Shown piece after piece: positions 11,760-57,287 of a DNA stretch of 64,000 nucleotides. Position numbers and translations under genes: made by a program. The notes under the pieces are model-generated. The model searched no databases. It was not told the origin of the DNA and saw nothing but the letters and a program-made list of their open reading frames with translations. Origin of the DNA: an uncultured virus (IMG/VR IMGVR_UViG_3300031857_021139) (lineage: Duplodnaviria; Heunggongvirae; Uroviricota; Caudoviricetes). The number at the start of each line of letters is the position of its first letter. Positions within the stretch are counted from its first letter, which is position 1. The DNA lies in IMG/VR virus record IMGVR_UViG_3300031857_021139; one strand, written 5' to 3'.

Positions 11760-12614
11760 TTACCTGGGGGCAAAATCCTGCTGTAATTTGATGTTGTCGG
11801 TGAACTCTTTTTTCACCGCAGGATCTGACCGGAAAGCACCATGAAGCACAGTGGTTTGGGTAAGGCTGGAATGGGCCATGATGCCACGATTCTCACAGCA
11901 ACCATGCGTGGCTTGGATATACACGCCCACATCCTTGCTATCAGTGGCCTTCATGATCTCTCGGGCGATGTCGTTGCAGAGTTCTTCTTGGAGTGTACCA
12001 CGACGGGCGCACCATTGTGCGATGCGTGTGTATTTGCTGAGTCCGATCAATTTCTGTGCCGCAAGGATGCCAATATAGGCAACGCCAACAACGGGTTGAT
12101 GATGATGGCTGCACATACTACGAAGTTCACTACGCACCACGAGCATGCCTTCATAACGGTCTGCTGAGTCGTTTGGAAAGGCTGTGCAATCTGGTGCCGG
12201 ATCGTATCTACCGCCCATGATTTCGTTGAAGTACATCTTGGCCAAGCGTCGTGCGGTGCCCTTGGAGTTAGGATCGTTTTCACGATCAATCAGCAATCGA
12301 TCTAACACAGTTTCAAATGCTTCTGCGGCTTCGTCGATTAGTTTCTCTTTATCTTGTTCGCTGACATAGTCGCTGATATTATCGCCAGCCCAAAAACGTT
12401 TTTTGTCACGTTTCATTTTAAAGCGAATTGCATCACCTAAGTATGATTCTTGATAACCGCCATCACCACTCATGGCATCTAAAGCTGTGGCGTCTTCATA
12501 ACCCGGTTGGTAAGGCGCCGCGGCTACCAGCGGATTTTGTTTAAGTGTGTCAAATGTATCTTTACTGGTAGCAGTAAGAGAGTTTTCCAGGTCTTCTGAT
12601 GTAAATGTTGTCAA
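11760..12614 (-). CDS. folE: GTP cyclohydrolase I with an N-terminal extension
   Basis: TARRLAKMY, SMCSHH, GLSKYTR, LQEEL and HGCCENRG motifs. Confidence 0.95.
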   Translation of the reverse strand: MTTFTSEDLENSLTATSKDTFDTLKQNPLVAAAPYQPGYEDATALDAMSGDGGYQESYLGDAIRFKMKRDKKRFWAGDNISDYVSEQDKEKLIDEAAEAFETVLDRLLIDRENDPNSKGTARRLAKMYFNEIMGGRYDPAPDCTAFPNDSADRYEGMLVVRSELRSMCSHHHQPVVGVAYIGILAAQKLIGLSKYTRIAQWCARRGTLQEELCNDIAREIMKATDSKDVGVYIQATHGCCENRGIMAHSSLTQTTVLHGAFRSDPAVKKEFTDNIKLQQDFAPR

Positions 12615-23168: not shown

Positions 23169-24008
23169 CTATTTAAATTTCACCGTTTTGGTATGATCCA
23201 ACATGCTCATGTGATCTTTTGATGAAGGACACTGCCGGCATATAGCATGTGGCTTGCCAAAATTGTTGATAAATTTATCAAGTTCACGATCACTGCAATC
23301 AGAATCCAGCCCTTTGGTCAAATAAGGTTGCCAGAGAGCCGAATTGGGCATTCCGTGCCTTTGCACTATCTTGGGCGTGAGACCCGCTGTGCCGCATTTG
23401 TAAAGGCGTGAGTCGTGTAGCAAAGGGCATCGCTGTTGCACACAGACATCGAACGCATCATGTATATTGTTGTCATGGGGTCTCATGTCATGATAATCAC
23501 CCTGGAAGGTCTTTAAGAAACGTGTAGGTGATGCAATCTGAAAACGCATGCCCGACGGCGAATGCCATCGGTCAATGCCAAACTCTTTGATCGCGACCCA
23601 TTTTCGGCTGGCAAACACTTGAGATATAGCCGAATCTATGCGCGGATCATTGACATGCTTGCTAATTTTCAGCACTGAATTACCAAGTTGATCAAGCAGA
23701 TCTACAACCCACCAGTGACGTTCTAACAAAAGACCATTGGTTATAAAACGTATCTGTGTGTTTGGCATGAGTTCTCTGATTCCTACGAGCCACGCACGCA
23801 AATCTGGATTGATCAGAGGTTCTCCCCCCATGAATCCAAATGCCTGTATGTCCAGTCTTTCCAACCAAGGTTCAATCTGCTGTCGGGCCTGCGCCCAGGT
23901 CATGTATCCACGATGATCCAGGTCTGAAAAAGTGGTGCATCCAGCACAACTAAGGTTACACACGTTAGTAGACATCATTTCCAGAAATGGCAACATTCGA
24001 CGTGTCAT
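23169..24008 (-). CDS. Radical SAM protein with a C-terminal Cys cluster
   Basis: CNLSCAGC, GGEPLINP and TNGLLL; later CVQQRC, YKC and CRQC. Confidence 0.9.
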   Translation of the reverse strand: MTRRMLPFLEMMSTNVCNLSCAGCTTFSDLDHRGYMTWAQARQQIEPWLERLDIQAFGFMGGEPLINPDLRAWLVGIRELMPNTQIRFITNGLLLERHWWVVDLLDQLGNSVLKISKHVNDPRIDSAISQVFASRKWVAIKEFGIDRWHSPSGMRFQIASPTRFLKTFQGDYHDMRPHDNNIHDAFDVCVQQRCPLLHDSRLYKCGTAGLTPKIVQRHGMPNSALWQPYLTKGLDSDCSDRELDKFINNFGKPHAICRQCPSSKDHMSMLDHTKTVKFK

Positions 24009-28112: not shown

Positions 28113-28577
28113 TCATTTTCCTGCGGCAGCGATGGCTGCCCCGTTGTTGAAACTGGGGCTCCAGGAATTTGGGGTGCGTCTTTTACGTTTATACCATTCA
28201 TAACCGGCTCTGTGACCACTACAGTCTACTGTACACGGACTGCCCTTGAAAGTCAACTCGTCTAATTGTTCTTCGTTTGTTTTGGTAGCCACACGCACTG
28301 GCTTTCTACCGCCACCACCTACGTCTTTGCCTGGTTTGCCAGCCCTGCCCTGCGCTTGTCGTTTGCGACGCACGGCCGACGCCTTTTGTTTGTCGCTCAT
28401 GGCCGCAGCCTTGGCAGCGGGCACGCATTTGGCATAGCCCTTTTTCTTGCCAGATGTCCCACATTCAGGATGGCCGCCACCTTTTTTCTTTTTGCCGATG
28501 TTGACCCACCGCTGTTTGAACCATTTACGCAGTCCACCTTGGTAAGCACCTTCGATGATGAATTCTTGTGCTCTCAT
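28113..28577 (-). CDS. Basic putative internal head protein (MRAQEFIIE start)
   Basis: True start is ATG 28577 (ATGA overlap). Contains GLRKWFKQRW and a second module after LDE (CTVDCSGHRAGYEW). Confidence 0.7.
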   Translation of the reverse strand: MRAQEFIIEGAYQGGLRKWFKQRWVNIGKKKKGGGHPECGTSGKKKGYAKCVPAAKAAAMSDKQKASAVRRKRQAQGRAGKPGKDVGGGGRKPVRVATKTNEEQLDELTFKGSPCTVDCSGHRAGYEWYKRKRRTPNSWSPSFNNGAAIAAAGK

Positions 28578-28981: not shown

Positions 28982-29082
28982 GCCAGTCCCAGTTGTTGTC
29001 TTACCATGCGCACGGCAGCAGCCAGGCTGGGTGCTGTCACTCTGTGCCAGGCCCCTTGTAATTTGATTTCAAAATTTTTCAT
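28978..29082 (-). CDS. 34-aa peptide MKNFEIKLQGAWHRVTAPSLAAAVRMVRQQLGLA
   Basis: Fills the gap exactly, with ATGA overlaps at both ends. Confidence 0.55.
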   Translation of the reverse strand: MKNFEIKLQGAWHRVTAPSLAAAVRMVRQQLGLA

Positions 29083-31172
29083 TCTTCAGCTCCTTTTTTA
29101 GGTCCTTTGCCCATGCGCCATCCACCGCCCTTGGATTTGTACCATTTGGCTGCCCATGCGTTGGCGTAGGCCGATGGATACACATCAAACTTGGATCTGG
29201 CTGCAGACTTTGCCCTGCTCCAGAGACCTGGATTGGTTGGTGTGGGTCTTTTTTTCTTTTCATTGATCTGTTGCTCTTTTACACCTTGCTTGACCAATTG
29301 CTGTGCTATTTTTTGATAGTTGGGATCACGTGGGCTGATAACCTGCCCTCCCACTGTGATTGGTTGCCCCATGCGCCAGGTTCCTGTCTGTGTCGGCACC
29401 GTGGTCGGCGTTTGGGCAGTAACAGGCGCCTTGGTCGCTGCCGCTGGGGCAGCAGATCCGGTTGTGGCAGCGGGCATAGGAGTACCAGTGAGCTGTCCCA
29501 CCATGCTGCCAAATGCGCCAGCACCCCCAGGTGGTGTAGATGATTTTGGAGCAATTGTGCCGGCTGCTGTTCTCGCCGATGCTACATCTTGTTTGAACAT
29601 TCCAGCTCGCTGTCGCAACATCGTGGATTGTCGTTGTAGTTCTCTGGCCTTGTCGATGTCCCCGGAAATGTTTGCTTGCTTGATTTGCTTTTGTATATCT
29701 GCGATTTGATTTTGTATCTTGAGTTTTTCTGACTGGGCCAGGTTTTGCAGGGCCTGTTGTTGCTGGCGATAAGCGCCTTGATTGCCCATGGCTTTGGCTG
29801 ATGTGGCCACATTAGATCTAATATTCATCGCTTTTTCTGCGGATGTTAGATCTCTAAAAGGATTGGTCGTTGGCTGAAATCCAATAGCCCGACCAACGCG
29901 ATCCATGATACCCTCGGTGGTTGATTCAGCCGCTTGTTGTACTAAAGAAAAACGCTGTCGGCGTTGTGCCGGATCAAGGGCCGGCTCATTGGCCGCTAAC
30001 TCATCTGCTGTCGATGCCGGAGAAATCGACACAGGTTCTGATTTCACAGGAGCAGCTGCCGCAGGAGCAGTGGGGGTTTGAGATTTGATCGTAGGTAGCA
30101 CGACACGGGGCGTAGCAACTGGTTTGATCGCGGGGGCTTTGTCCGGCTCGCTCTTGGGTATTGATACCTTTATAGATTTAGAGATATCAGATAGATTGGC
30201 CACTGCTTTTTCAAGACTGTTGATTTCTTTTTGTTGTTCATCGTTGACTCGTGATAGTTGGTCTAACACCGCGTCTGTCTTGGTATCTTTTTCAACAGCT
30301 TGTTGTATACCACCACGGCGTTTTGTCAAGGTGGCGATGCGTTTTTGCAGATCTGACTTGATATCTGTTTCGAGATTGTCAACTTCTTTTTCTAATTTAT
30401 TGATTTCTTGGCTGTCACGACGCTCGGCGTCTTCGAGTTCGTAGGCCAGAGCTTCCACATCAGACGTGGCTTGAGGTTGCCTTGCCCGCATCTTGGACAT
30501 CATCCTTTCGGTACGTCCTTGAGCCCCGGCAGGTGCTTCTGCTACTTCAGATCTTTTTTTTTGAGGAAGGGTGGTTTCGTCCTGTCGTCGAGGACTTTTT
30601 GCGCCACCGGATTGCGTGGGAGAGAAGAGATCACCGGCAGCAGGTTCGACATCTTGCTGTGCCTGCTGGGCACGGGCTTTGATAGCATCTTCCTTTTCCC
30701 AGGCGCTGAGTAGGAAATCAAATCCTTCAGCTGTGCCCATGAAACGATAGAGATCTTGTGCCTTGCCAGCGTCAGTCCACTCCTTGGCATGACCTATGAC
30801 CCACTCCTTGTCACCGGGTAACTTGACCTGGTATTTGACTCTACCGGTCTGATTTTTGATGTACACAGAGATGTCGTTTTTGGCATTGGTTTCAAGGTTG
30901 CGCAGATTCTCCATGCCGCGTATGACATTGGGATCGGATTGCCCTTGCTCATCCAATTTGATGGTCTGCACAGATTGTCCAGTACCTTTGGCATACTCCG
31001 CGGCAGGCCCCAGGCTCATGAATTCTTTGTCGCCTACCTTATAACGATATGCGCTCTGTGGTCGTTCTTTGTCAATGTCACGCAGGGTGAGATCGGGACG
31101 GCCTGCTTGCCTGCGCAGGTATGTAGGCATGTCGCTGGGCTTGAGGGCTTCAAATATATCGTCTAATATCAT
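29079..31172 (-). CDS. Modular coiled-coil protein, putative internal head polyprotein
   Basis: MILDDIFE start; linkers KLDE, EVAE, TTE, QGVKE and QINE; basic C-terminal module KFDVYPSAYAN...YKSKGGGW. Confidence 0.7.
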   Translation of the reverse strand: MILDDIFEALKPSDMPTYLRRQAGRPDLTLRDIDKERPQSAYRYKVGDKEFMSLGPAAEYAKGTGQSVQTIKLDEQGQSDPNVIRGMENLRNLETNAKNDISVYIKNQTGRVKYQVKLPGDKEWVIGHAKEWTDAGKAQDLYRFMGTAEGFDFLLSAWEKEDAIKARAQQAQQDVEPAAGDLFSPTQSGGAKSPRRQDETTLPQKKRSEVAEAPAGAQGRTERMMSKMRARQPQATSDVEALAYELEDAERRDSQEINKLEKEVDNLETDIKSDLQKRIATLTKRRGGIQQAVEKDTKTDAVLDQLSRVNDEQQKEINSLEKAVANLSDISKSIKVSIPKSEPDKAPAIKPVATPRVVLPTIKSQTPTAPAAAAPVKSEPVSISPASTADELAANEPALDPAQRRQRFSLVQQAAESTTEGIMDRVGRAIGFQPTTNPFRDLTSAEKAMNIRSNVATSAKAMGNQGAYRQQQQALQNLAQSEKLKIQNQIADIQKQIKQANISGDIDKARELQRQSTMLRQRAGMFKQDVASARTAAGTIAPKSSTPPGGAGAFGSMVGQLTGTPMPAATTGSAAPAAATKAPVTAQTPTTVPTQTGTWRMGQPITVGGQVISPRDPNYQKIAQQLVKQGVKEQQINEKKKRPTPTNPGLWSRAKSAARSKFDVYPSAYANAWAAKWYKSKGGGWRMGKGPKKGAEE

Positions 31173-32975: not shown

Positions 32976-32993
32976 GGTGTATTTACCGTGGCT

Positions 32994-34970
32994 TTATTTG
33001 CTTTTTTTCTTGCCGGATTTCATGTTGGCACACCAGTGATACATTTTGGCCTTTTCGCCCGACGCATTTTTAGCACGGGCTCGTAGATCAGTTACACTTC
33101 CGTTGCAACTGGCACCTGCACGTTTCACACGACCTGGTCTGCTTTTTCCCTTGACTTTGCCATCAGCAAAGTTCTCGTCGGTCTTGCTTTTGTAGAATAT
33201 TTTTTCATGATGCGGGCCAGTGGTCTTCATGATTTCGTTGGCCAGCTTGGCCACAGTTATCACTGCACGGTTACTTCTAGGATTGGCCTTGACATCTGCC
33301 CAGTTCTTATAACCATTCTTCTGTGCGGCTTGATCCAAGGCTCGTAGCACTTCGGGTGGAGTTTCTTGCATTTCCTCCAGAGTCTTGGTCGGAGGTTTGA
33401 TACGGTCCGTGGGTAAAGCATGTGTGCGCCAGTATTCTTCGGCACCGGCTGGTGTGGGTGCCCGTTTTTCTTGCCTACGTTGCTTGGCCACTTGCTTGCC
33501 TTGCTTTAGCAGAGCCAACTGACGATCTATTTCTGCTCGCTGGGCTAACAGTTTTGGCAGTTCACTGGGTTGGTAAGGTATTCCATAGATCCGGCTGGCT
33601 TGCTTGATGGCCTGGTCGTAGTCCAGAGTTATGCCTTCACGTCCGGCATCTCTCATGGCCATGGCCGCTGCTTTGAACAATAGGCTGCGGCCAGTGATTT
33701 CGGGGCCTATCTTTACTTCCGTGACACCTGCTGACATATCTTTAGATAATTTTTGTTTAAGTGATTGAATCTTTTGCTGATACATTTTGCATTTTGCATC
33801 ATCACCGGCACGATTTGCAGCCAGGGCCAGTGCTTCCAATTTTGACATTTTCTTTTTGATATCATCGGTGCCTTCCGCCACACCTTGTTTTGATTCACTT
33901 GTATAAGTCGCCCCATAACCTACCCAGGCAGGTCCAGTATACCCCTGGGGATACGCTTTTAGATGTTGGATGGTCCTATGCCACCCTTCAATCAAATCAT
34001 AACCATTGCTCAATTTAGCAACAATGATAGGTTCTTGGCTTACCCCTTTTTGTTGGATCATTTTTTGTTGTAATGCGTGGCGTTCGGTATCTTTGGGCAC
34101 TTGATATGGATTACTCGAACCACCTTCACGCTCTTTGATCATTCGTTGAGTTTTGGGTGTAAAGATGTCAAGTGTGATGGGCAGTTTTTCCAATCGCCAT
34201 CTCACTCGACCAAAATCTCGCTGTATCTCATCTGAAAAATCTTCTAAATCTTTTTGATTTTGATTTCCTTTTGCCTTGGCATATAAAAAATCTCGTTGCA
34301 CATATTCAGGCCATTGTGTGCTTGGAAATTTAGACTGAATCCAAGCCCAAAGTTGATCACGATATTCATTCAAGGAGCCTTCCGAGACACCCTGTTCCCA
34401 CACATTGCTATCGGGTCGATGTTTGGCCCAAAAGCCAGCACCAGCATCGGTCTGCTGGCCACTCCTGCGTATCTTATAACCCAGGCTTTTCACATAGTCA
34501 TACATGGCAGCGGCGATGCCTTGGCCACGATAGCGTTCATCCACCTCAAGATCCTGTGGCATCAACTCACCGTCGTAGTCCACGAACAGCACGGATCCCA
34601 ACTGCTTGTCACCTGTTGACGCTCGCACCATGATTTCGTCATCGTCGCGTTCCATAGATATATCTATGCCACGAAATGCATCTTCCATCAAACCTGTGCT
34701 TCGACGCAGTTTCAAATCGTAATCACGGTCACTTTCATAGTTGGTATTGTATTTTTCATAATAGCGTCGTGCTTCGGCAGGTGTGCCAGCTTCAAATCTA
34801 TGGACTATGCGAGTGGGATCTTCAGCGTGGTATATTTCGTAGCCCTTGTTGAGTCTATCTCTGACCTGGGCCATTTTTTCCATTCTACGATCAACCTGTT
34901 GTCCAGCGCGGCTCAAATAATTTTGTAAACGTTCGTCGCTGACTTCGACGATAAATTCTCTGGCTCTCAT
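32994..34970 (-). CDS. Polyprotein: GNAT acetyltransferase, ParB-like domain and basic C-terminal module
   Basis: MRAREFIVE start; GNAT motif EVDERYRGQGIAAAMY; ParB-like PIIV..YDLIEGWHR; linkers GLME, QGVSE, QGVAE and AGVTE. Confidence 0.75.
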   Translation of the reverse strand: MRAREFIVEVSDERLQNYLSRAGQQVDRRMEKMAQVRDRLNKGYEIYHAEDPTRIVHRFEAGTPAEARRYYEKYNTNYESDRDYDLKLRRSTGLMEDAFRGIDISMERDDDEIMVRASTGDKQLGSVLFVDYDGELMPQDLEVDERYRGQGIAAAMYDYVKSLGYKIRRSGQQTDAGAGFWAKHRPDSNVWEQGVSEGSLNEYRDQLWAWIQSKFPSTQWPEYVQRDFLYAKAKGNQNQKDLEDFSDEIQRDFGRVRWRLEKLPITLDIFTPKTQRMIKEREGGSSNPYQVPKDTERHALQQKMIQQKGVSQEPIIVAKLSNGYDLIEGWHRTIQHLKAYPQGYTGPAWVGYGATYTSESKQGVAEGTDDIKKKMSKLEALALAANRAGDDAKCKMYQQKIQSLKQKLSKDMSAGVTEVKIGPEITGRSLLFKAAAMAMRDAGREGITLDYDQAIKQASRIYGIPYQPSELPKLLAQRAEIDRQLALLKQGKQVAKQRRQEKRAPTPAGAEEYWRTHALPTDRIKPPTKTLEEMQETPPEVLRALDQAAQKNGYKNWADVKANPRSNRAVITVAKLANEIMKTTGPHHEKIFYKSKTDENFADGKVKGKSRPGRVKRAGASCNGSVTDLRARAKNASGEKAKMYHWCANMKSGKKKSK

Positions 34971-38296: not shown

Positions 38297-39847
38297 CTAC
38301 CTCCCATACTGGCTGTCTACCATTTCGGCGTGCCGTTGGTCCGAAGCACCTGTGAGCCCGCGTAATAGTCTACGGTTGTCCACTGGCTGTTGGCCGCGAT
38401 ATATCTCATAGGGACGATATCCTGGTGCGTCGGGTAGTCGAGCCACACCGTAACTTTCAAAGCCGGGAACGAAGTTCATGGTGGCCACGATCAAAGCCTG
38501 ATTGGCCACTTGTTGTTCCAGGGTCTGGGCACGATCGGCATCCCGTATGGCTTCGCGGCCTCGGCCCACAGCGGCTTCTTGTGCTGCCGCTCGCATCTTG
38601 GCAGCAAGTTCTTTCCTACGCTCGCTGGCTTCTTCTTCGCGTTTCTTTTCTTCTTTGAGTGCGATCTCACGCTCGGCGTCAGTGGCTGCTCGCAGCCTGC
38701 GGCGTCGTTCTTCTTCGCTTTCTTCCTGTGCCTTGGTCTGTACCTGCAGGGTCACTGAGCCAGTGGGACTGGCTGTGCTTTCAATTTTTTTAGTCACCAC
38801 GGTATTGACCTCACTGTCAGGAACCACTGCCACTCCTGTGGTCACCGTGCCGTCGGTAGCAATGGTTATGGTAGGTTCTGTTGTGGAAACAGTGCCTGTG
38901 ACAGATACCGTGGTGGTGCTGGTGGAGGCAGTAGAAGCAGTGGCAGTGGACTGTGTGGATTGTTGTTGCAGGGCATAAGCAGTGTTGTATCCCGGACATG
39001 ATCGATCATACAAGGGATTGGCTGTGCATTGTTGATTGAAATAGGCCTGTTGATATCCAGGGCAGGTAGCATTGTACAATGGATTTGCTGTGCATTGTTG
39101 CGTAAAAAGTGCGGTTGCATACCCTGGACAGGAAGGATCTGTCAATGGATTGGCTGTGCATTGTTGTGTCAACAAGGCCTGTGCATAGCCCGAACAAGTG
39201 GGATCGCTCAAGGGATTGGTGGCACACTGATCCACCCCATACAGCAGCCGCACATTGGTGTCTCGCACCCTCGGTCCATACAGTCCCATCCAGAACAAAC
39301 TGTCTTGTCCAGTCCATGACATATCCAGACTGCTTACTTGTCCAGTGGTGTAGCCACCGCTTTGGGAAAAAAGTTGCCGACCAGAATAGGTGACGAAAAT
39401 ACCAGCAGGTTGGCCACCGGCTGCATATGAATAGGAAAATGTTTCCAATACCGATTTGTTCTGCATGAGACTGATGTTTGCTGACAGCGGGCCAGCGGCC
39501 TGGCCACCGTTCATGATCGACCAGGCATAGTCATAGCCCAGCCACTTGATGCCGTTACCGGCCAAAGCATTGGTAATGGCAATGCTCTGTGCCACTGTGC
39601 TAGGCATATATGAAAATCTGATGGTGTTGGTATCTTGATTGTAGTAGGCCGAACCCGTGGTAGGTCCAGCACCTTCTATGGCACCGATACCTGCAGAGTT
39701 CATGACTTGGTTATTGGGTATGCCCCAGGCCGTGCCAGCAGGGTTGATGAGATTGGTCGTGGCTGTCTGGCCATAGGCCGGATAACTCAACCAGAACCCA
39801 AAGGTCAATAGGGCCCAGTAGATCCAGAAACGAAGCCAGATGTTCAT
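38297..39847 (-). CDS. Exported protein with tandem Cys repeats, a Thr-rich linker and a coiled coil
   Basis: Signal peptide ending AYG; four CxxNPLxxxxCxGY repeats. Confidence 0.75.
   Translation of the reverse strand: MNIWLRFWIYWALLTFGFWLSYPAYGQTATTNLINPAGTAWGIPNNQVMNSAGIGAIEGAGPTTGSAYYNQDTNTIRFSYMPSTVAQSIAITNALAGNGIKWLGYDYAWSIMNGGQAAGPLSANISLMQNKSVLETFSYSYAAGGQPAGIFVTYSGRQLFSQSGGYTTGQVSSLDMSWTGQDSLFWMGLYGPRVRDTNVRLLYGVDQCATNPLSDPTCSGYAQALLTQQCTANPLTDPSCPGYATALFTQQCTANPLYNATCPGYQQAYFNQQCTANPLYDRSCPGYNTAYALQQQSTQSTATASTASTSTTTVSVTGTVSTTEPTITIATDGTVTTGVAVVPDSEVNTVVTKKIESTASPTGSVTLQVQTKAQEESEEERRRRLRAATDAEREIALKEEKKREEEASERRKELAAKMRAAAQEAAVGRGREAIRDADRAQTLEQQVANQALIVATMNFVPGFESYGVARLPDAPGYRPYEIYRGQQPVDNRRLLRGLTGASDQRHAEMVDSQYGR
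38975..39232 (-). repeat. Four tandem 66-nt (22-aa) Cys repeats
   Basis: QCATNPLSDPTCSGY, QCTANPLTDPSCPGY, QCTANPLYNATCPGY and QCTANPLYDRSCPGY. Confidence 0.9.
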
Positions 39848-41792: not shown

Positions 41793-42503
41793 TTAATTTG
41801 TTTGGTTTTTTTGATACCAGCGATCTACCACATCAAAGGCTGGTCGGAAGAATATGGCTATGGGAAAACCTTGATCACGTCGTATCATGCCCACTCGTGT
41901 CTTACCTTGAGGCGCATCAGTTTTCTGGTCTCGGCCCACACGTTGCAACCAAGCATCAGGGCGTATGCGTACCAACCAGGTGTAAGGATGCTGGCTGGCA
42001 AACAGATCACCACCCTGTAGATAAGTGCGCAGAGGATAAAACCACAGTGCGGGTCGACCTCCCGGACGTGGCAGTGACAACGGATCAAAGTCAGGATCGT
42101 CGATGTCAGGAGTGCGACCAAAGTGTTGTCTTGCTGAAAATCCCACCTTGTCTTGATCCGTGAAGCGCACGAAATATTCGTCCGGTGATCCCGGCAATAT
42201 GGTGGCCATGTTTTCGATCTCAGTGCGGGCATCAGCGTGCCGGGCTTCGTGTAACTTGGAGTCTATGGTCAAAGGACGGAGATATCCAGCACTGCCAGGA
42301 TCATATTCATAGCCAAGATCATTGAGTTCTTGCATCATGGCCTGTGTTTCGGCTCTGAGACGCTGGAAAAGTTGATCATTACCATACTGCCGCATATGGA
42401 CATTGAGATCTAACACATGATCGTGTATGTCGCCGGCAATGGATCTCGCAGTGTTGATGTTCACACCGGGCTTGGCTTCGATTACAAACTCTTGTGCTCT
42501 CAT
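41793..42503 (-). CDS. Putative internal head protein (MRAQEFVIE start), two modules
   Basis: CTS-like N-terminus; LHE linker. Confidence 0.7.
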   Translation of the reverse strand: MRAQEFVIEAKPGVNINTARSIAGDIHDHVLDLNVHMRQYGNDQLFQRLRAETQAMMQELNDLGYEYDPGSAGYLRPLTIDSKLHEARHADARTEIENMATILPGSPDEYFVRFTDQDKVGFSARQHFGRTPDIDDPDFDPLSLPRPGGRPALWFYPLRTYLQGGDLFASQHPYTWLVRIRPDAWLQRVGRDQKTDAPQGKTRVGMIRRDQGFPIAIFFRPAFDVVDRWYQKNQTN

Positions 42504-43656: not shown

Positions 43657-44001
43657 TCATTCATCCAGACCATGCTGTCGCATGAATGAGTCATATCGGT
43701 CAGTGTGTCGCCGGATGATGTCGTAAAGCCCTTGCGTCACTCGGAGATCCTGGCGAGGCAGAGGCTCTCCCACTTTGATGCGATTTAGGAACTTTTCCAG
43801 CAACTCTTTGCCGGCCTGCAATGCTTCGTGATCGGTTTGACCACGCACTGCGGGCACCAAGCGTTCCACGGCCGCACGATCTGCGGGTGAAAATATCTGT
43901 GCCCGGGCACTGTCAGCAGGCAAGGTGACCACGGGACTCTTCTGTGCCAGGAAACTGGCAAGGTCTTTGTTTTCGGTCATGATGAATTCCAAGGCTCTCA
44001 T
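43657..44001 (-). CDS. Putative internal head protein (MRALEFIMTE start)
   Basis: True start is ATG 44001 (TAATG overlap). Confidence 0.65.
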   Translation of the reverse strand: MRALEFIMTENKDLASFLAQKSPVVTLPADSARAQIFSPADRAAVERLVPAVRGQTDHEALQAGKELLEKFLNRIKVGEPLPRQDLRVTQGLYDIIRRHTDRYDSFMRQHGLDE

Positions 44002-45125
44002 TATACGTACCTTGCAAGGGTGTCGGGTCCCAAATCTCGTATGCGATTGGGAGGAATTCGCACAGTTGAAAAGTGCCAACCATATTGGTATTCCAGTGGA
44101 AGCCCAGTGATATCAACTTGCAACAAGGTCAACTCTTCATCCGAGTCGTAGGCTTTGGCTCCTATCCAACCGGCCACTTGATATATTTCGTCACGCAACT
44201 TCTTTTGATTGCCCTCGTCTACTACTAAGAATGCTTTGCCATCGCGGGGGTCCAATCCTTTGTACATGATTTCTTCTGCGTTTTCAAGGCCAGTGATATG
44301 ATATGCTGTCGTTGGTGTTGATGGTTGTTCAGATTCGACCATCTGAGATTCCATCATCTCTGCACCCACACGATCGGCAATCACACTCCATGCTTCCGCA
44401 TTGGCATTGTCGTTGACGACTAATTCTCTATTTTGTGTTTTGTACAGTCTTTCACCGGCTGCAAACAAAGATTTAATCACAGCAGTGGCAGCACCTTTGT
44501 ACTGACCGGCTGTGGCATCTTCTATCACAACAATCATCGACTCGCCTTCGGCATAGGCATTGAGTGTGAGATAAAATGCTCCACGCACAGTATCACTGCC
44601 AGCAAACGCACTGGCTGCACCTTGTTGTCCTTTGGCTGTGGTCAATCCCACACCTTCTACCACCGACCGACCATACAGTTTGACATCTGGGTATAGTTGG
44701 GCAAACGCATCTTGTGCTACTGCTATGATCTGCTGTGCTGGCATTTGTTCAAAGTCCACTGACTCAACGATATCTGCTTCGGGATCTCTGTTTCTCCAAA
44801 ATGCTTTGCCCGGATCAGTGAGTGCGTGGCTGGGTTCTATATCGTTGCCCAGTTCTTCAGCAAAATCGTACATCATTCGAGCAATGCCTCGACGACGGTA
44901 TTCTGGTTTTACTTCGGCTGTGCTGGCTTGTAAATGATCACCAAGGTTTATAAATGACACACTGCCAACTTCTTGGTCATCAATTGAAGCTGAAATTTCT
45001 AATCTACCTGCTTCTTCGATCCAGGCTCGTAATTTTATACCATTGCGTTCTTCGGAGTAGTTGAAACTGCGATCATACTCCAGTTCGGGCATTGTGTCTT
45101 CGAGGATAAACTCTTGTGCTCGCAT
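44001..45125 (-). CDS. Polyprotein: GNAT, GNAT-like and ART/Tpt1-like modules (MRAQEFILE start)
   Basis: EVKPEYRRRGIARMMY; GQYKGAA...AEAW; AYHIT..IMYKGLDP..LLQVD..IPPNRI; linkers IVE, MME and MVE. Confidence 0.7.
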   Translation of the reverse strand: MRAQEFILEDTMPELEYDRSFNYSEERNGIKLRAWIEEAGRLEISASIDDQEVGSVSFINLGDHLQASTAEVKPEYRRRGIARMMYDFAEELGNDIEPSHALTDPGKAFWRNRDPEADIVESVDFEQMPAQQIIAVAQDAFAQLYPDVKLYGRSVVEGVGLTTAKGQQGAASAFAGSDTVRGAFYLTLNAYAEGESMIVVIEDATAGQYKGAATAVIKSLFAAGERLYKTQNRELVVNDNANAEAWSVIADRVGAEMMESQMVESEQPSTPTTAYHITGLENAEEIMYKGLDPRDGKAFLVVDEGNQKKLRDEIYQVAGWIGAKAYDSDEELTLLQVDITGLPLEYQYGWHFSTVRIPPNRIRDLGPDTLARYV

Positions 45126-46026: not shown

Positions 46027-49000
46027 TTATCTCATCTCCGGCACTACTTCCAAAGGATCATCGATCCGCGACTGCTGTGCCCAACGCTGTGCCACTCTGT
46101 TGGCATCGGCTTGGCTGTTGCCTATGCCACCAAATGTGTGTAGAACTTCATTGGTGTTGGCATTGCGTATCTGCCACCGACCAGAGAATTCCTGTTGTGT
46201 TGATGCAGGAATAAATTCGCGCATGCGTCGCCAGGCTGGAGGTTCTTGTGGATTGGCTTCGATGCTGACGATGTCGCGACGTTGTGCCTGGAGAGCCGAA
46301 CGCACACGATCCATGGCAGCATTGGCATTCTCAGCATCTACGTTGAGGCTGTCTTGAACTTCTTGACCGTTGCGACGTTCACGCCAGATCACTCGGTAGT
46401 ATCCGGTGTCTCTCACAGCACCGGCTGGTTGCGGCTCGCCTATGCGTGCTTGTAAATCTTTGGAATCTTGTGCATTGTCTGCAGCCACTTCTGGACTTAC
46501 TTTGGGTTCTTTTAATCGTTTGGCCACCTGCGCTCTTGGGCTCAGTTTGTTTTTTGGTTCTGGAGTCTCGTCGGGTCTACGGAATACTTTCCAGTCATCC
46601 GACAATCGATCTCCATATTCTGCTTGGACTTTTTGTGTGGCTTGATCAATATCTCGAGCTCGCACAGTTAAAAAGACATCGCCATAACTGTCTTTGACAT
46701 CAAACCATGGCTGTTTGATACGGACTTCAAGTTCGTTGATGTCCTTGCCGTATTGTCTCAAGAACAGATCGTAGGCACTGTCATAGTCCGTGGCATAGAA
46801 TGTGCCAACAATTCCATCGGGACTGTCTTTGTTGTCTCGACGGTAGACTTCGTATTCTTCTTTACCTGTGGTAGGAATTTCTTTCTGTAGTACAGCATCA
46901 GCCCACTGTTTTTTCAACTGTTCTGGTGAAATGGTTCCTGCGGCATATTCAGAGAACAGTTTCAATCCATCATCCTGAGCTCCTGGGCTGATCAATTTGT
47001 ATAATTTTTTAGCATACTCTCGTCGCTCCAAAGAAGGACTACCAGCGATCTGCATGGCTCGAGCAAAGCGCAACATGGTATTTTTTATGTCGTCATATTC
47101 GCCACGGCTTTCCATGCTGAGATAATCACCACCAGGACTGCGGAATTCAATATAGCCATCTTTGATGTGTGCCGAAGTGTATTTGCTGAGACCTACACCA
47201 TCCTGCACGTAACGAGCAGCCAACTCAATGAGATTCTTTTGAACCAGTTCCAAGGCACCCAAGGGGTCTAATTTGGCTTCTGTTAGTTCGCCACGATTAC
47301 GGGCTCCGGCCATGTTCTGGCGCAGTTTGCTCATAGCCGAGGCCGCATAGGTATTTGATGCACGACCAAACTTGTCCAGGATGTATTCGTCGCCCATGAA
47401 CAACACCAGTTTCACGTAGTCAACATCACCACCCACATAGGGTATGCTTATGCCCATGTGTAGACCAGTTGATGAGTTAGTGTAAGCATCGGCTTCGTTG
47501 TTACCCCACTCAATCACTGCTTTCAATTTGTCCAAAGTCTCTGGCAATGGCATGGGCGGAGATACGATTTCTAATCCCATGTCTTCGTAATCGTCGGGGT
47601 CCAGGCTGCCATCAGGTTCGATGATCCAACGATCATCTCGGCGGGTGGCAGAATGATATCCAGAACTGACCTTGACAGGCATATCCACTGCGCTTTGCAA
47701 GCTGCTGCCAATGTCTTCCCAGTCGCGTTCGCCGCCACCTTGACTACTGCCGGTGTAGTAAGGCCAATCCAGACCAAATTCGTTGGCGATGTCGCTCATC
47801 CAGCGCAGACCCACATCCGAAAAGAAAGAATCATCATCACCTGACCAGTTGTCGCGGAAATTGTCCAAGGCAGTGTCATAATAGCCATCTTGCCTGCGTA
47901 TGCTGTCTTCCACTTGCTCTTGTAATTCTGTGTCTACAGCATCAGCGGCCTCCAGATATTGTTCGTAGTCTGAGTTTTCAGCCGCGTAGGCTTCTTGATC
48001 CGAATTTTTTGTAAAACTCGGCGCCTTCGAACCAGCGGCTATGATCCTGTCTGCTTCTTCGTCGGACTTCTGTAGGGCGTCTGTGAGGTATACATAGATG
48101 CGGTCGCTGAGGGGTGTGTCATCTAACAACACTTCGCGTACGAGATCTTCGGCTTCGTTGCCAAAATCGTCTATGATCTGACTGTCACGCCATTCCATGT
48201 AGGTTTCATCTAGTCTTTCTTCCAGACGATCTTGTTGGCGTTGTGTCATGCCATAACCATAGTCGTCATTGGCAAAGAAATCTACTACCTGTGCCACGCT
48301 AAAAGCACGCTCATCTGCGTCATAGTCGGGCTCCATTTCCTCGTCATCATCATCACGCTTGGTATTGCGGAAGATCATTTCCGCTTCGAAACCGGCACGG
48401 ATACCCTGGGCTTCGGGCGATCGCGCCCAGTCTTCCAGAGACGTGGGATTCATCTTGACTTCTAATAGATCCTCTTCCTCATCGATCTCCACACAGTTGG
48501 GCACCATCCTATTGCCCTTCCGCTTCATGCCTTGCTGTTGATAACCGTCCCAGCATTTCTCATCCAGTTTCACTGCTTCCAGGAGATTGTTTAATTTTTT
48601 CATCAACAGTTGCGGACGACCTTGGCTGTCGGTTTTCAGTCCCAGTTTGTTGGCTTCCTTGCCTGTCTGGCCAGGTTGCACATCCACAGTCAGTGCCATC
48701 TTGAAACGCGGATCATTCTTTTGTTTTTCTGTTGGGATGTAGCCCGATGCCTCGGCCACTTGCTTTCTCATCTGCTGTGCCAGTCTATAGGTCTTGATGA
48801 ATTCTTGTTCTTGTCGAGTCATGGGCCGCCCAAGATTGGCCTTCATATGCAAGAACTTGTAGTAATCATCGTGTGCTTTTTGGTTCTTGGCCACGGGAGT
48901 TTGTATGGACTCTTTCCGCATGTCCGACTGTGCTTCTCGGCGCCATTGATCAACCAGTTCCGGTGATGGCGATGGTTTGGCACCCTGCCGTCCATTGCGT

Positions 49001-50721
49001 ATCCAATCTTTCATGGCTTGTTGGAATTCTTCCTTGGCACCAGCACGGATGATATCTCCACGGCTGGCAGTGCCATAGGGCTTGGTGGCCTGGATTGCAC
49101 GACCAATGGCTTGGGCACCTTGTATGGCATCAGTGCCTGTGGTAGCACAACCTGGCGTGCCAGCTACACAGGCGGCGGCAGCCAAGGCACCTAACTTGGA
49201 TTTGATACCTTCATCAAGGTTGCCAAAATATTCGGGATTGAGATCTGCGTAACGGCGCATGATGATACCGGCAGCGGCATTGGCTTCGTTTTCCCAGTCA
49301 CTGCCAGTGTCACCGCTGTGTTCTGGCATAGGAGAGATTTCGTTCTGGCGATGATGTGCCAGTTCGTGGGCCACGGTGCGCATGATGTCCAAAGGATGGC
49401 GATTGACCAGGCTCACATACAAAGTATTTTCTTCGGGCTTGTAACGACCAAATGTGTTGTTGCGTTCGCTCCAGGCTGGATCTCTGCGGAACTTGATCTT
49501 GGGCATGTGATCTATGCCCAATTGTCCTGCGGCAAAGGCTATGAATCTCTCCAGCATGTGTTCAGCACCTTGGTCCTCATCCATGCGATAAGCACCTTCG
49601 GGATCTTTGTTCTTGGCCCTGCGATCAATGTCCAAGGTCTTCATGCCCAGCCGATCGAGATCCTTTTTGTAGAGATGCTCTATGGGTTCCGACCCAAAAC
49701 TCAAAACGGTTTGTGGAGCGCCTTTGCCGTAGGCACGAGGATCTGCGTGCTTGAGGTCACTGATGTCTTGGCCTAACTTGTACCAATCATACACGTCACT
49801 GACATTGACTAACACAGTGCCTGCTGGCATTTCAGGTTTGAATTCTGGACCTGGTGGTTCATCATTGGGATCGTAATCCTCGACACGGCTTTCGCCGCCG
49901 CCATCACCACCACCACCGGCATCGCTGCCTTCTGTTGAGCCATATCCAAAGCCTGGATAAAAATATCCACCAAATGATCCCCAACGGCGCTTGCTACGTT
50001 TCTTTTTCCGTTCGCTGAGACTCATCAATTGATCTTTGGCCTGCAGGCGTGCGTTGCGCAGTCGTTCAAGGGTGCCGTTGCCTCGCAACACCTTGAAGGC
50101 CAGATTCTCCGGACCAAACTCACCGTGCTGGTCCAATCCGCTCTGACGGAGCTCACGTATCTTGGTAGCCATCTTGTCCATGCGATCGAGGTCCCCGGAT
50201 TCAATGGCCTGATCAATACGTGATGCAAGATCTTCGTACTTGCTCTTGACTGAAATGTCATCTACGTCAGGTTGTCTACGATTAGGAACACGCACCCATT
50301 TGTCATGCAACACTGAATATATGCCCTGGCTGTGATGTGGTTTGCGGGCATCTTGCACATAGAGTTCTACGTCATAGCCACCGATCTTGAAATCATGCTG
50401 ATCGTTGTACTGATATTTCTTCGCATCAAAAAGTTCACGATAGACTTCGCTGTCATCAGCCCTGGGCAGGTCTGTGACTAAATGAAGATCTATGTCTGAA
50501 TGAGGGGTGTATGTATAGGCTGCATTAGAGCCAGACACAGTGATGTCTTTGACTTCGACACCTATGCCCAGGCTTTCGCGGAAGTCGTCTGCGATAGCCA
50601 GCAGACGTTCGCGCACTTGTGGCAACATCTGCTCGTCTGGCCCCCAGATTCGGGGGTTTAGACGATCATTAAATTTTACAGCGTCTGAAAGACGATAATT
50701 TTCTAACTCACGGAGATCCAT
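46027..50721 (-). CDS. 1564-aa polyvalent protein: Pol-beta-type nucleotidyltransferase, HExxH metallopeptidase, amidoligase and small modules
   Basis: VSGSNAAY...SDIDLH; VAHELAH; GFEAE, EPDGSL, GLEIVSPP, STGLHM and IEFRSPG. Confidence 0.8.
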   Translation of the reverse strand: MDLRELENYRLSDAVKFNDRLNPRIWGPDEQMLPQVRERLLAIADDFRESLGIGVEVKDITVSGSNAAYTYTPHSDIDLHLVTDLPRADDSEVYRELFDAKKYQYNDQHDFKIGGYDVELYVQDARKPHHSQGIYSVLHDKWVRVPNRRQPDVDDISVKSKYEDLASRIDQAIESGDLDRMDKMATKIRELRQSGLDQHGEFGPENLAFKVLRGNGTLERLRNARLQAKDQLMSLSERKKKRSKRRWGSFGGYFYPGFGYGSTEGSDAGGGGDGGGESRVEDYDPNDEPPGPEFKPEMPAGTVLVNVSDVYDWYKLGQDISDLKHADPRAYGKGAPQTVLSFGSEPIEHLYKKDLDRLGMKTLDIDRRAKNKDPEGAYRMDEDQGAEHMLERFIAFAAGQLGIDHMPKIKFRRDPAWSERNNTFGRYKPEENTLYVSLVNRHPLDIMRTVAHELAHHRQNEISPMPEHSGDTGSDWENEANAAAGIIMRRYADLNPEYFGNLDEGIKSKLGALAAAACVAGTPGCATTGTDAIQGAQAIGRAIQATKPYGTASRGDIIRAGAKEEFQQAMKDWIRNGRQGAKPSPSPELVDQWRREAQSDMRKESIQTPVAKNQKAHDDYYKFLHMKANLGRPMTRQEQEFIKTYRLAQQMRKQVAEASGYIPTEKQKNDPRFKMALTVDVQPGQTGKEANKLGLKTDSQGRPQLLMKKLNNLLEAVKLDEKCWDGYQQQGMKRKGNRMVPNCVEIDEEEDLLEVKMNPTSLEDWARSPEAQGIRAGFEAEMIFRNTKRDDDDEEMEPDYDADERAFSVAQVVDFFANDDYGYGMTQRQQDRLEERLDETYMEWRDSQIIDDFGNEAEDLVREVLLDDTPLSDRIYVYLTDALQKSDEEADRIIAAGSKAPSFTKNSDQEAYAAENSDYEQYLEAADAVDTELQEQVEDSIRRQDGYYDTALDNFRDNWSGDDDSFFSDVGLRWMSDIANEFGLDWPYYTGSSQGGGERDWEDIGSSLQSAVDMPVKVSSGYHSATRRDDRWIIEPDGSLDPDDYEDMGLEIVSPPMPLPETLDKLKAVIEWGNNEADAYTNSSTGLHMGISIPYVGGDVDYVKLVLFMGDEYILDKFGRASNTYAASAMSKLRQNMAGARNRGELTEAKLDPLGALELVQKNLIELAARYVQDGVGLSKYTSAHIKDGYIEFRSPGGDYLSMESRGEYDDIKNTMLRFARAMQIAGSPSLERREYAKKLYKLISPGAQDDGLKLFSEYAAGTISPEQLKKQWADAVLQKEIPTTGKEEYEVYRRDNKDSPDGIVGTFYATDYDSAYDLFLRQYGKDINELEVRIKQPWFDVKDSYGDVFLTVRARDIDQATQKVQAEYGDRLSDDWKVFRRPDETPEPKNKLSPRAQVAKRLKEPKVSPEVAADNAQDSKDLQARIGEPQPAGAVRDTGYYRVIWRERRNGQEVQDSLNVDAENANAAMDRVRSALQAQRRDIVSIEANPQEPPAWRRMREFIPASTQQEFSGRWQIRNANTNEVLHTFGGIGNSQADANRVAQRWAQQSRIDDPLEVVPEMR

Positions 50722-51670: not shown

Positions 51671-51766
51671 TTAGTTCAGGGGCAAGCGCCAGGGCAGATT
51701 CACTGGCATAGGAATCTGTCGGCGACCGGGTCTGGGCATGGAAGGTATGGGACTGGGATGTCTCAT
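51671..51766 (-). CDS. 31-aa Pro/Arg-rich peptide
   Basis: MRHPSPIPSMPRPGRRQIPMPVNLPWRLPLN; ATGA overlap with the upstream peptide gene. Confidence 0.4.
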   Translation of the reverse strand: MRHPSPIPSMPRPGRRQIPMPVNLPWRLPLN

Positions 51767-51882
51767 TTTTTCTTGCGTCCGGCGCAGTGTGCTCTTTGGC
51801 TGAAACCGCGAGGACGTTGGCAATTGATACTGCGTTTGTACTTTTGGCTCCATTTTTCGGAGATGAATTCTTTAGCCCGCAT
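51763..51882 (-). CDS. 39-aa basic peptide with an MRAKEFISE start
   Basis: Manual translation MRAKEFISEKWSQKYKRSINCQRPRGFSQRAHCAGRKKK. Confidence 0.7.
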   Translation of the reverse strand: MRAKEFISEKWSQKYKRSINCQRPRGFSQRAHCAGRKKK

Positions 51883-53881: not shown

Positions 53882-54580
53882 TTATTTATACGTGGTTATA
53901 GGCTGGGTTTTCCTTGCCAGTCGGGGATGAATCAAACTCAGCATGGTTTCAAGTCCAACTACGCTGTGATCGATGAAAAAATAATCTTGGGGGTTTTTCC
54001 AACTGGTGTGATTGACCCATTCATTCAGGCTAGGGCTCAAACGCATGTCAGTCTGTTTTACCAGGAAATCTCTCAAAGCCTGTGACCGACTGTCGCTGAT
54101 GTTGGCATAGCGCAGCCAGGTACGATAGGCATAAGATGATTTTTTCAAGTACACATGACCAACTTCCTGCCCGGACAGCTTGAGTTTGCGCAGATGCATC
54201 TTGGACTGATCCAACCAGGGTATGTCCAAGAGTTCATCTAAAAAAGATTGATCCTGTGTATAGAAATATAAGCAGTTGCCCGAAATTACCAGTTTAAATC
54301 TGCCAGCACGGTATTGCAACCAATCCGCCATGTCATGCACATTTTTTTTGACTGTGTCGTCTATCTGTCGGGGAGTCCAATCTGTACGCCACGAACCGCC
54401 GTAGTTTCGATTGATAGCACGATGTCCCCAACTCTGCCGTATTGCCAAGATACGATCAATCTTTTTATGATCGGGATATCTCAGTACTGCTGCCTCAGGA
54501 AGATATACCAGCAGGCAATGATCGTATTTGCCAAACCAAGCGCCGGGCCTGGAAACTATGTCACAGGGTATCTTAGTCAC
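53882..54580 (-). CDS. Hypothetical protein
   Basis: Intact ORF overlapping the clpA stop. Confidence 0.65.
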   Translation of the reverse strand: MTKIPCDIVSRPGAWFGKYDHCLLVYLPEAAVLRYPDHKKIDRILAIRQSWGHRAINRNYGGSWRTDWTPRQIDDTVKKNVHDMADWLQYRAGRFKLVISGNCLYFYTQDQSFLDELLDIPWLDQSKMHLRKLKLSGQEVGHVYLKKSSYAYRTWLRYANISDSRSQALRDFLVKQTDMRLSPSLNEWVNHTSWKNPQDYFFIDHSVVGLETMLSLIHPRLARKTQPITTYK

Positions 54581-56849: not shown

Positions 56850-57279
56850 TTTGTTCCTTGTATCTATCCCACATGGTGACACCGTCTAAATGATCTAATT
56901 CGTGTTGGAAACATCGGGCCTGCAGGCCTACCAGTGTTTCGGTATGTGCAGTCCCTTGATGATCTTGATATCGCACTTCTACCCAGTCCGGTCTTACAAT
57001 TGTACACTGATCTCCAGGAAAACTCAAGCATCCTTCATCAAAATCGGCCAGCACGTCGCTTTGTTGCAACACTTCCGGATTGAAACAGGCACGACGCACG
57101 CCATGTACCAACATAACAAATACCCTTTGTGACATGCCTACCTGCGGGGCTGCCAACCCTATGCCATTTTGTTTGTGCATGAAATCAAATAGATGCTCGC
57201 TGATCATCCTGTTCCGTTCGGGATATTGGAATGTCACTGGTTTGGCTGTGCGATTTAAAACCCGTTTAGTAAGTTTCAT
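56833..57279 (-). CDS. def: Peptide deformylase
   Basis: GIGLAAPQ, EGCLS and QHELDH motifs. Confidence 0.95.
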   Translation of the reverse strand: MKLTKRVLNRTAKPVTFQYPERNRMISEHLFDFMHKQNGIGLAAPQVGMSQRVFVMLVHGVRRACFNPEVLQQSDVLADFDEGCLSFPGDQCTIVRPDWVEVRYQDHQGTAHTETLVGLQARCFQHELDHLDGVTMWDRYKEQNANKS

Positions 57280-57287
57280 AAAAATAT

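Follow-up and report, generated by a model that had tools for sequence, protein, structure and literature searches.

A probable capsid-targeted cargo polyprotein in an uncultured, putatively T4-like phage, with module linkers conserved as DNA joints

An open reading frame (ORF) on the minus strand of an uncultured lake virus, at positions 32994-34970 of a stretch of 64,000 nucleotides (nt) from IMG/VR record IMGVR_UViG_3300031857_021139 (hereafter, the window), chains at least seven unrelated small modules, M1 to M7, behind a nine-residue leader, the module edges having been delineated by blastn comparison of the ORF with 19 loci related to it, taken from IMG/VR and from JGI metagenomes (Table 1). 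The canonical linker between modules, CAAGGTGTGGCGGAAGGC, is a DNA joint: its silent sites are conserved across unrelated genes, and similarity between genes starts or ends there. The ORF probably encodes a capsid-targeted cargo polyprotein, the linkers of which act both as protease sites and as in-frame exchange joints. This dual role, as prohead-protease site and as recombination microhomology, had been proposed in a preliminary description made from the letters of the window, and each computational test of the present analysis supports it, the protease half by analogy with phage T4.

In agreement with that description, the GNAT, ParB-like and helical modules (M2, M3 and M4) are separated by linkers that end in Glu, and junctions beyond the three reported there were found, together with the leader, at TGLME/D (residue 96), TLEE/M (approximately residue 533) and TDE/N (residue 599), where the slash marks the boundary. 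The four copies of the linker motif are located where they had been placed on the minus strand, CAGGGTGTCTCGGAAGG at 34378-34394, CAAGGTGTGGCGGAAGG at 33871-33887, CAGGTGTCACGGAA at 33717-33730 and CAAGGTGTAAAAGAG at 29274-29288, and are read in frame as QGVSEG, QGVAEG, AGVTE and, in another gene, QGVKE; the three linkers of the polyprotein occupy nt 577-594, 1084-1101 and 1240-1257 of the ORF. Counting of CARGGTGTNNNNGAR gave three copies in the window against a shuffle mean of 0.16, and none of 100 shuffles reached three; the core GGTGTNNNNGAR was not enriched in the window, where its six copies compare with an expectation of 3.76 and were matched or exceeded in 20 of 100 shuffles. The whole ORF has only 12 triplets of the form [LIVM]-x-E. 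Seven of these coincide with, or directly adjoin, the end of the leader or a boundary between modules (residues 7-9, 94-96, 195-197, 364-366, 416-418, 531-533 and 534-536), the remaining five being inside M2 and M3.

The similarity of the linkers at the DNA level exceeds what their amino acids require, as is evident from codon statistics at silent sites both in the window and across IMG/VR. In the window, the variable residue of the linkers (Ser, Ala or Thr) is spelled TCG, GCG or ACG, each of which makes up 8-10% of the codons for its residue here; the joint probability of this spelling is 8e-4, although the pattern was noticed post hoc. Among 53 non-redundant GV[AST]E sites, collected from 80 viral loci and the window, Ala is GCG in 68% (background, 7%), Val is GTG in 57% (20%), Gly is GGT in 83% (40%) and the next Gly is GGC in 80% (31%), whereas the GVAE of an unrelated structural protein is spelled with GTT GCT. 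An unbiased scan of IMG/VR for CAAGGNGTNGCNGAAGGN returned at least 137 matches at no fewer than 122 loci. Among the matches listed, 93 are in an open frame as QGVAEG, at 79 loci with unrelated flanks; 45 of these sites are exactly CAAGGTGTGGCGGAAGGC and 10 more differ in the last base alone. Relative to the 40 flanking codons on each side, these 93 listed sites are strongly biased for Gly GGT (82 sites against a flanking fraction of 0.43; p 1e-19), Val GTG (65 against 0.18; p 4e-28), Ala GCG (71 against 0.10; p 6e-52) and Gly GGC (63 against 0.30; p 5e-14), whereas no such codon preference is seen in the 44 listed matches outside an open frame. The lock persists after removal of sites with similar flanks, which leaves 83 listed sites, 42 of them with the exact 18-mer. 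In contrast, 53 leaders from the same loci follow background codon use at their silent sites, except for Arg AGA (83% against 28%), an excess linked to the stop and start codons that overlap as ATGA at many leader genes. Because the leaders are unlocked, the lock is specific to the linker and characterizes neither these genes at large nor protease sites as such.

A matched comparison was also carried out on 18 non-identical M3 genes, 20 of the 38 available having been dropped (15 for failure of the boundary pattern and five for identical DNA). The top-codon fractions at the linkers were 0.83-1.0, and Ala was spelled GCG in 13 of 14 and 14 of 15 cases, whereas the mean was 0.70 over 57 conserved M3 codons of at least four-fold degeneracy, of which five were fixed. 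This comparison backs the lock and is supportive but small. Three near-complete relatives of the phage (IMG/VR records G001-G003; 320-350 kb, 92-97% complete) carry one, one and four copies of CARGGTGTNNCGGAA in identical spelling, and the reversed-pattern control gave none; with so few copies per genome, conversion within a genome is an unlikely cause of the lock.

The domain content of related proteins is variable. In a protein search, 2589 relatives were found among the 8000 candidates scored, and most of them cover one module (approximately 27-29% of the query length, typically M3) or two; the other domains of these relatives include GH19 chitinase with LysM, dCMP deaminase, canonical ParB, nucleotidyltransferase, sigma-70 region 4, NT5C, acid phosphatase and amidoligase. 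Two relatives, P0002 (93%) and P0003 (88%), keep the GNAT, helical and later modules and lack exactly the ParB-like module; their junction reads ...NVWEQGVAEGTDDIKK, the crossover being known at the protein level only. The syntenic slot, which across relatives has the same small ORF, the same Dps-like gene and the same neighbours downstream of it, is filled by 658 aa in the window, by 335 aa in G001 (leader, two other GNATs and tail) and by 203 aa in G002 (leader, one GNAT and tail), so that orthologous content is not fixed. Comparison of EFITE/TINTGILNKRF in G002 with DQDIAE/TINSAILNKRF in G001 indicates that a module can begin straight after the leader Glu or a linker Glu alike.

The breakpoints of similarity fall at the motif, as the preliminary description had anticipated. 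The ends of blastn high-scoring segment pairs (HSPs) cluster at nt 576-580, 596, 1080-1101, 1240-1255, 1596-1600 and 1795 of the ORF. Among 120 listed homologues, and excluding the L-N-E inside M3 itself, [VILMF]-x-E stands at the expected offset on the N-terminal side of M3 in 62 of 67 cases, directly abuts the module in two more and is missing in three; on the C-terminal side the motif is present in 78 of 81, two of the others reading GAAE and one GVTK. The sequences joined to M3 at these boundaries comprise at least 44 different upstream and 38 or more different downstream neighbours. Contigs of the Logan assemblies, drawn from four public runs of four studies (one of which, X1, may be the source sample and thus non-independent), also depart from the window at linkers: 11 of the 24 departure points listed, besides which there are 77 more, are within 4 nt of a linker edge, namely 34378/34379 (X1, X5 and X7), 33887-33891 (X1, X5 and X6) and 33716 (X5 and X6). 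Four apparent joints in contigs were not used, because their sides of 22-26 letters are under the 30-letter mark of reliability.

Three regions attract a pile-up of contigs in all four runs, namely 32976-33069 (tail), 33728-33915 (M4 and linker 2) and 34386-34573 (GNAT core), where the summed depth is approximately 40-220 against 5-12 over the rest of the gene. This depth is a sum over all similar contigs and not a copy number. The pile-ups place the tail, M4 together with linker 2 and the core of the GNAT in many further sequence contexts within those samples. A metagenome scan yielded only 11 loci. In a metagenome contig, a 97%-identical relative (L210, around 790-810), the linker that follows the GNAT is QGVTDG, Asp taking the place of Glu. 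In T4, a leader with Asp at that place is blocked in processing and keeps its targeting (PMC9026906); by this analogy, QGVTDG may be a natural uncut junction. The window also contains a 1564-aa ORF with an amidoligase domain (46027-50721, minus strand), the counterparts of which in G001 (1625 aa, L015) and G002 (1864 aa, L043) carry extra C-terminal modules, canonical ParB included, joined by GMAE, GIAE and GVAE linkers; in these relatives, the linkers mark the giant amidoligase protein as a polyprotein of the same system.

The leader of the ORF, MRAREFIVE, shares its E-F-I-x-E ending with the T4 capsid targeting sequence (CTS), MKTYQEFIAE (PMC8442874). In T4, residues 8 and 10 of the CTS govern processing, the prohead protease gp21 cleaves after L/I-X-E (PMC9026906), and the internal proteins of T4-type phages are a diverse set with the leader alone in common (PMC3012670). 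The pattern M-R-A-x-E-F-[ILV]-x-E opens six genes on the coding strand of the window, and a seventh gene starts with a variant of it; at the DNA level, there are six matches in the window and none in any of 100 shuffles. The 39-aa basic peptide of one leader gene (51763..51882) is found elsewhere as a module within polyproteins.

The start of leader genes is often fused to the preceding gene by an ATGA overlap, in which the TGA stop of the upstream gene and the ATG of the leader share bases. Such overlaps occur in 45 of 53 leaders of related loci and, in the window, at 28574-28577, 34967-34970 and 42500-42503; at the ORF under study, the upstream gene is NT5C-like. The arrangement points to translational coupling, and one altered base could be enough to fuse or split adjoining cargo genes. 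An internal MRAKEFITE within polyprotein P0047 fits such a fusion of neighbouring cargo genes.

The window is a nearly all-minus-strand gene block of a large phage and encodes a T4-type family-B DNA polymerase (PolB), a ClpB-like ATPase, DnaJ, peptide deformylase, endolysin and spanins as well as nucleotide-sugar and queuosine-type enzymes. Its PolB is 77-80% identical to that of IMG/VR records G001, G002, G003 and G005 and 56% identical to that of G004. A homologue of gp21 (Peptidase_S77; E approximately 1e-23) was found in three of the five records searched, that is, in all three that are near-complete (at least 92%), one such homologue being the ORF at 7106-7738 of L082/L087, and these three also encode a Gp23-type capsid protein (E approximately 1e-97), with head genes in the T4-like order of portal, protease, scaffold and capsid. 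The N-terminal region of the capsid protein of the relatives has L-x-E and I-x-E sites, such as KYLKE/NASAGS, which we take to precede the part aligned with mature T4 gp23. No Peptidase_S77 protease or gp23-type capsid gene was found inside the 64-kb window, and no counterpart of the ORF was detected at E 1e-5 when its full length was compared by tblastn with 50,697 phage records of GenBank. A search of IMG/VR with an exact 50-base stretch of the window likewise had no match. Judging from the gene content of these relatives, the window appears to be part of a T4-like jumbo phage of approximately 330 kb, and the presence of the protease in the near-complete relatives argues for a gp21-type protease in the phage of the window.

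On the favoured explanation, the CTS-like leader would bring the chain into the prohead core, where the gp21-type protease would cut after the leader Glu (EFIVE/) and at the exposed linkers TGLME/, QGVSE/, QGVAE/, AGVTE/, TLEE/ and the atypical TDE/, thereby freeing a GNAT acetyltransferase, an enzyme of ParB/sulfiredoxin fold, small helical pieces and a basic tail. The freed modules would then stay inside the head and pass into the host together with the DNA. This protease half is proposed because the junctions fit L/I-X-E, the leader resembles the T4 CTS, and gp21 is present in all three near-complete relatives; cleavage, packaging and injection of the modules are thus predicted by analogy with T4. 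Gain, loss and swapping of modules would preserve the reading frame, the most likely route being recombination over short homologies when phages co-infect a host, in which the 18-mer would promote in-frame crossover. The lock itself could arise by transmission bias, with no need for foresight: modules flanked by the consensus would recombine into new genes and would therefore come to dominate.

Several observations weigh against this explanation. In the matched comparison, 16 of the 57 conserved M3 codons also reach 0.83, and each near-complete relative has only one to four exact copies of the linker. The two linkers that flank M3 agree at only 14 of 18 bases, with a longest exact run of eight, so that exchange with other genomes fits better than intragenic recombination. 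Eighteen bases are short for efficient homologous recombination of the T4 type; the paper on the PeSL motifs of T4-type phages cites recombination patches of <50 bp, and the PeSL motifs themselves span approximately 100 bp (PMC2839356). Breakpoints at linkers could come from selection on viable chimeras alone, although such selection would not lock silent sites. On the side of the protease, most linkers have Val two positions before the Glu, whereas the gp21 rule of T4 is L/I-X-E; the T-D-E junction before the tail departs from the rule altogether, with Thr and not [LIVM] at that position; and the protease gene itself is found in the relatives only. Finally, the T4 late promoter TATAAATA is absent before every leader gene, its single copy in the window being at 53890, and these phages may use other late promoters.

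It is unlikely that the ORF encodes an uncleaved multidomain 'polyvalent' protein that acts or is injected as a whole chain, with the linker serving as a flexible spacer and recombination joint. Polyvalent proteins of phages do have 2-15 domains, GNAT and ParB-like included (PMC5512222), and the virion RNA polymerase of N4 is a precedent for packaging without processing (PMC7824862); however, a spacer has no need of a Glu that never varies, nor of a hydrophobic residue two positions ahead of that Glu, the same Glu rule closes the leader, modules elsewhere start right after the leader Glu, and gp21 homologues exist in relatives. If the polyprotein is cleaved, the silent lock might still serve translation or RNA, for example through a pause that lets modules fold, for which the rare GCG codon or the purine-rich AAGGTG and GGAAGG would be candidates. 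GCG is indeed the least used of the Ala codons in the background (7-10%), whereas its share in the linkers is 68-77%, and the lock is confined to inter-module positions. Nevertheless, a pause would not need fixed CAA, GGT and GGC, the likeness of the purine-rich stretches to Shine-Dalgarno sequences is a by-eye reading, and DNA similarity between genes that ends inside the linker would be left unexplained, all of which makes a role in translation decidedly unlikely.

A dedicated cassette system, in which a phage nuclease or recombinase recognizes the 18-mer and moves modules in the manner of an integron but in frame, would account for the presence of the same 18-mer over many unrelated contigs at one to four copies per genome, which is hard to ascribe to intragenomic conversion, and the PeSL paper raises a helper protein for T4-type shuffling (PMC2839356). 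Such a system is very improbable, given that general T4-type recombination machinery may suffice; no linker-associated candidate enzyme turned up, although no systematic search for one was made. The scarcely credible alternative is that coincidental motifs or an ordinary repeat are being seen in a normal multidomain gene: the short core is not enriched in the window, but the longer motif is, the codon p values reach down to 6e-52, and the junction statistics concur.

Several known systems resemble the proposed polyprotein in part. T4 IPI, IPII, IPIII and Alt likewise have a short xEFIxE leader that ends in the protease rule (PMC8442874, PMC9026906), and the T4 internal proteins are hypervariable basic cargo behind a conserved leader, in a lineage with a gp21-family protease and gp23-type capsid (PMC3012670). 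They are, however, single proteins with one cut, whereas the present chain joins as many as seven or more unrelated modules by internal cut-site linkers; linker DNA conservation is found here, unlike in the T4 internal proteins, and no sequence homology to them came to light, although no search aimed at it was made. Polyvalent proteins (Iyer et al., 2017) also contain many effector-type domains per polypeptide with extensive mosaicism, among them GNAT, ParB-like, deaminase, nucleotidyltransferase and lysozyme-type domains, and are likewise proposed to enter the host along with DNA, but their release is attributed to built-in zincin-type peptidase domains (PMC5512222). The word 'linker' is absent from the main text of that paper, which describes no junction peptide, prohead-protease rule or DNA-level conservation (PMC5512222). 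In the giant phages phiKZ, 201phi2-1 and SPN3US, gp21-like proteases cut head cargo (ejection or inner-body proteins) after Glu at A-X-E or S/A/G-X-E, in some cases more than once in the same protein (PMC5694885); these proteins differ in having long propeptides that are removed and in not being shuffled strings of independently occurring modules, and no codon-locked linker is reported for them.

At the DNA level, the PeSL motifs are comparable in that short conserved sequences flank variable T4-type genes and are sites of insertion, deletion and replacement crossovers, but they are approximately 100 bp long, intergenic and regulatory, with a sigma-70-like promoter and a stem-loop (PMC2839356). 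The joint described here is 18 bp long, lies inside a reading frame, keeps that frame and encodes a peptide signal. Polymorphic toxin loci, a comparison also drawn in the polyvalent-protein paper, have a conserved junction where variable C-terminal modules recombine (PMC5512222). They differ in being bacterial and secreted, in having immunity genes and a single variable tip, and in having no serial modules of phage heads. The junction motifs of CdiA and Rhs are known cases of such conserved toxin junctions. None of the systems compared unites serial modules, a protease-rule linker and conservation of linker DNA. A full-text literature search for the linker peptide returned one unrelated fungal paper, and searches on the themes of polyprotein, prohead protease, capsid targeting, jumbo phage and microhomology, among papers available without subscription, gave no description of the system.

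A bolder proposal, which we regard as doubtful, treats the 18-base linker as a signal for exchange that is actively maintained and through which varied lake phages would share one pool of small injected-effector modules, the modules being semi-autonomous replicators that spread from genome to genome by in-frame crossover at the linker. Crossover would then possibly be aided by a dedicated nuclease or recombinase, and the linker would also tell the head protease where to cut. If this is true, one short sequence is read twice, as DNA joint and as peptide cut site, in an in-frame, protein-coding counterpart of the integron. Already as a site of both cutting and swapping, the linker would explain the assembly and rapid re-assortment of a kit of small proteins delivered with the DNA of giant T4-like phages, and the delivered modules would be candidate anti-defence and host-takeover factors. 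It would also be a clear example from nature of silent positions in a coding sequence that are shaped, by selection or transmission bias, in the interest of recombination. Cutting of polyproteins at the linkers could also be a route by which many phage effector modules are mined from metagenomes, and leader and linker together could help to load chosen proteins into phage heads.

Table 1. The polyprotein ORF, its leader, modules and linkers, and related leader genes and junctions in the window; similarities are given in nt of the ORF, from blastn.
Feature	Position	Strand	Remarks
Polyprotein ORF	32994..34970	-	658 aa
Leader MRAREFIVE, aa 1-9	34944..34970	-	T4 CTS-like; ends I-V-E
M1, aa 10-96, helical, no assigned function, ends TGLME/D	34683..34943	-	L218 HSP; similarity nt 25-288 (L218)
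M2, aa 97-197, predicted minimal GNAT acetyltransferase fold	34380..34682	-	AlphaFold (AF2) and Foldseek; sub-cutoff Pfam; similarity nt 286-576 (L213), 317-596 (L210)
Linker 1, QGVSEG, CAG GGT GTC TCG GAA GGC	34377..34394	-	
M3, aa 198-366, three helices then ParB/sulfiredoxin fold (predicted), G+C at third codon positions (GC3) 0.32	33873..34379	-	AF2 and Foldseek; similarity nt 576/580 to 1098-1101 (L210 95.6%, L211 88%, L001 85.5%)
Linker 2, QGVAEG, equal to the consensus 18-mer CAAGGTGTGGCGGAAGGC	33870..33887	-	
M4, aa 367-418, 52-aa helical piece	33717..33872	-	blastn HSPs; similarity nt 1080-1255 (six loci)
Linker 3, AGVTE, GCA GGT GTC ACG GAA	33717..33731	-	
M5, aa 419 to ~533, no assigned function, ends TLEE/M	33375..33716	-	HSPs, nt 1250-1600, in three loci (L217, L220, L041)
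M6, ~aa 533-599, no assigned function, ends TDE/N	33174..33374	-	L219 HSP; similarity nt 1596-1788 (L219)
M7, basic tail NFADGK...MYHWCANMKSGKKK	32997..33173	-	HSP start exactly at nt 1795 in seven loci
Leader gene MRAQEFIIE, 154 aa, two basic modules	28113..28577	-	
Leader gene MRAKEFLPE, 58 aa	32516..32692	-	
Leader gene MRAQEFVIE, 236 aa	41793..42503	-	
Variant leader gene MRALEFIMTE, 114 aa	43657..44001	-	
Leader gene MRAQEFILE, 374 aa, with GNAT	44001..45125	-	
Leader gene MRAKEFISE, 39-aa basic peptide	51763..51882	-	
QGVKE junction in ORF 29079-31172	29274..29288	-	Adjoins 64-aa basic tail matching phrog_27331

Of the modules, only M2 and M3 could be assigned a fold, and both assignments are supported by predicted models. 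The AlphaFold model of M2 has a predicted local distance difference test (pLDDT) score of 87, and its top Foldseek matches are all GNATs (best E 9.6e-4, probability 1.0); M2 also carries RYRGQGIA, which fits the acetyl-CoA-binding motif R/Q-x-x-G-x-G/A, and its Pfam GNAT scores of 24.1 and 20.5 bits are just under the cut-offs of 27 and 20.7. The model of M3 (pLDDT 86) has top Foldseek matches that are all sulfiredoxin, ParB, Noc, PadC or KorB, with weak E values of 8e-3 to 3e-2 and probabilities of 0.97-1.0 over approximately 95 aligned columns, and a sequence search of the PDB gave Spo0J at E 0.15. M3 is below the curated Pfam threshold for ParB_N (15.2 bits against 26.3; E 0.023), and GWHR stands where ParB has its GERR box. 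Residues of the linkers have pLDDT <50 in both models. Pfam matches up to E 1 included no credible family for the tail or for M1, M4, M5 and M6, an Atlas search of the tail matched only unnamed viral clusters, and Pfam gave no peptidase family in the ORF or its modules.

The ParB-like segment is more AT-rich than its flanks, as had been remarked: M3 has a G+C content of 0.416 and a GC3 of 0.320, against GC3 values of 0.545 for the GNAT and 0.526 for M5, and only 2.5% of segments of 507 nt are equally GC-poor. The steps of GC3 across the linkers (0.545, 0.320, 0.327, 0.526) are expected for a mosaic. M4 recurs in polyproteins of approximately 1000 aa in relatives. The most widespread module is M7, which mostly accounts for the 591 related viral stretches and also exists alone as a viral protein of 48-67 aa.

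Elsewhere in the window, ORF 38297-39847 (minus strand, 516 aa) has a hydrophobic N-terminus, four to five tandem paired-Cys units of approximately 21 aa (QQCTANPLxDxSCPGY...) and then a Thr/Ser-rich followed by a charged region, with no family match. In G001, a 274-aa ORF that adjoins the capsid gene (L087, 10114-10938) has an N-terminus that looks GIY-YIG-like by eye and is a candidate homing endonuclease; such enzymes could bear on the possibility of a dedicated nuclease. A Vut_1/YhhQ-type transporter (1152-1835), a QueD-like PTPS (8339-8842), a GTP cyclohydrolase I (11760-12614) and a radical-SAM protein (23169-24008) together look like a queuosine-type 7-deazaguanine pathway. Phage pathways of this kind often serve DNA modification. 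A cluster for chaperoning and protein maturation, composed of the ClpB-like double AAA ATPase, the peptide deformylase and a full DnaJ, is encoded at 54573-58076 on the minus strand.

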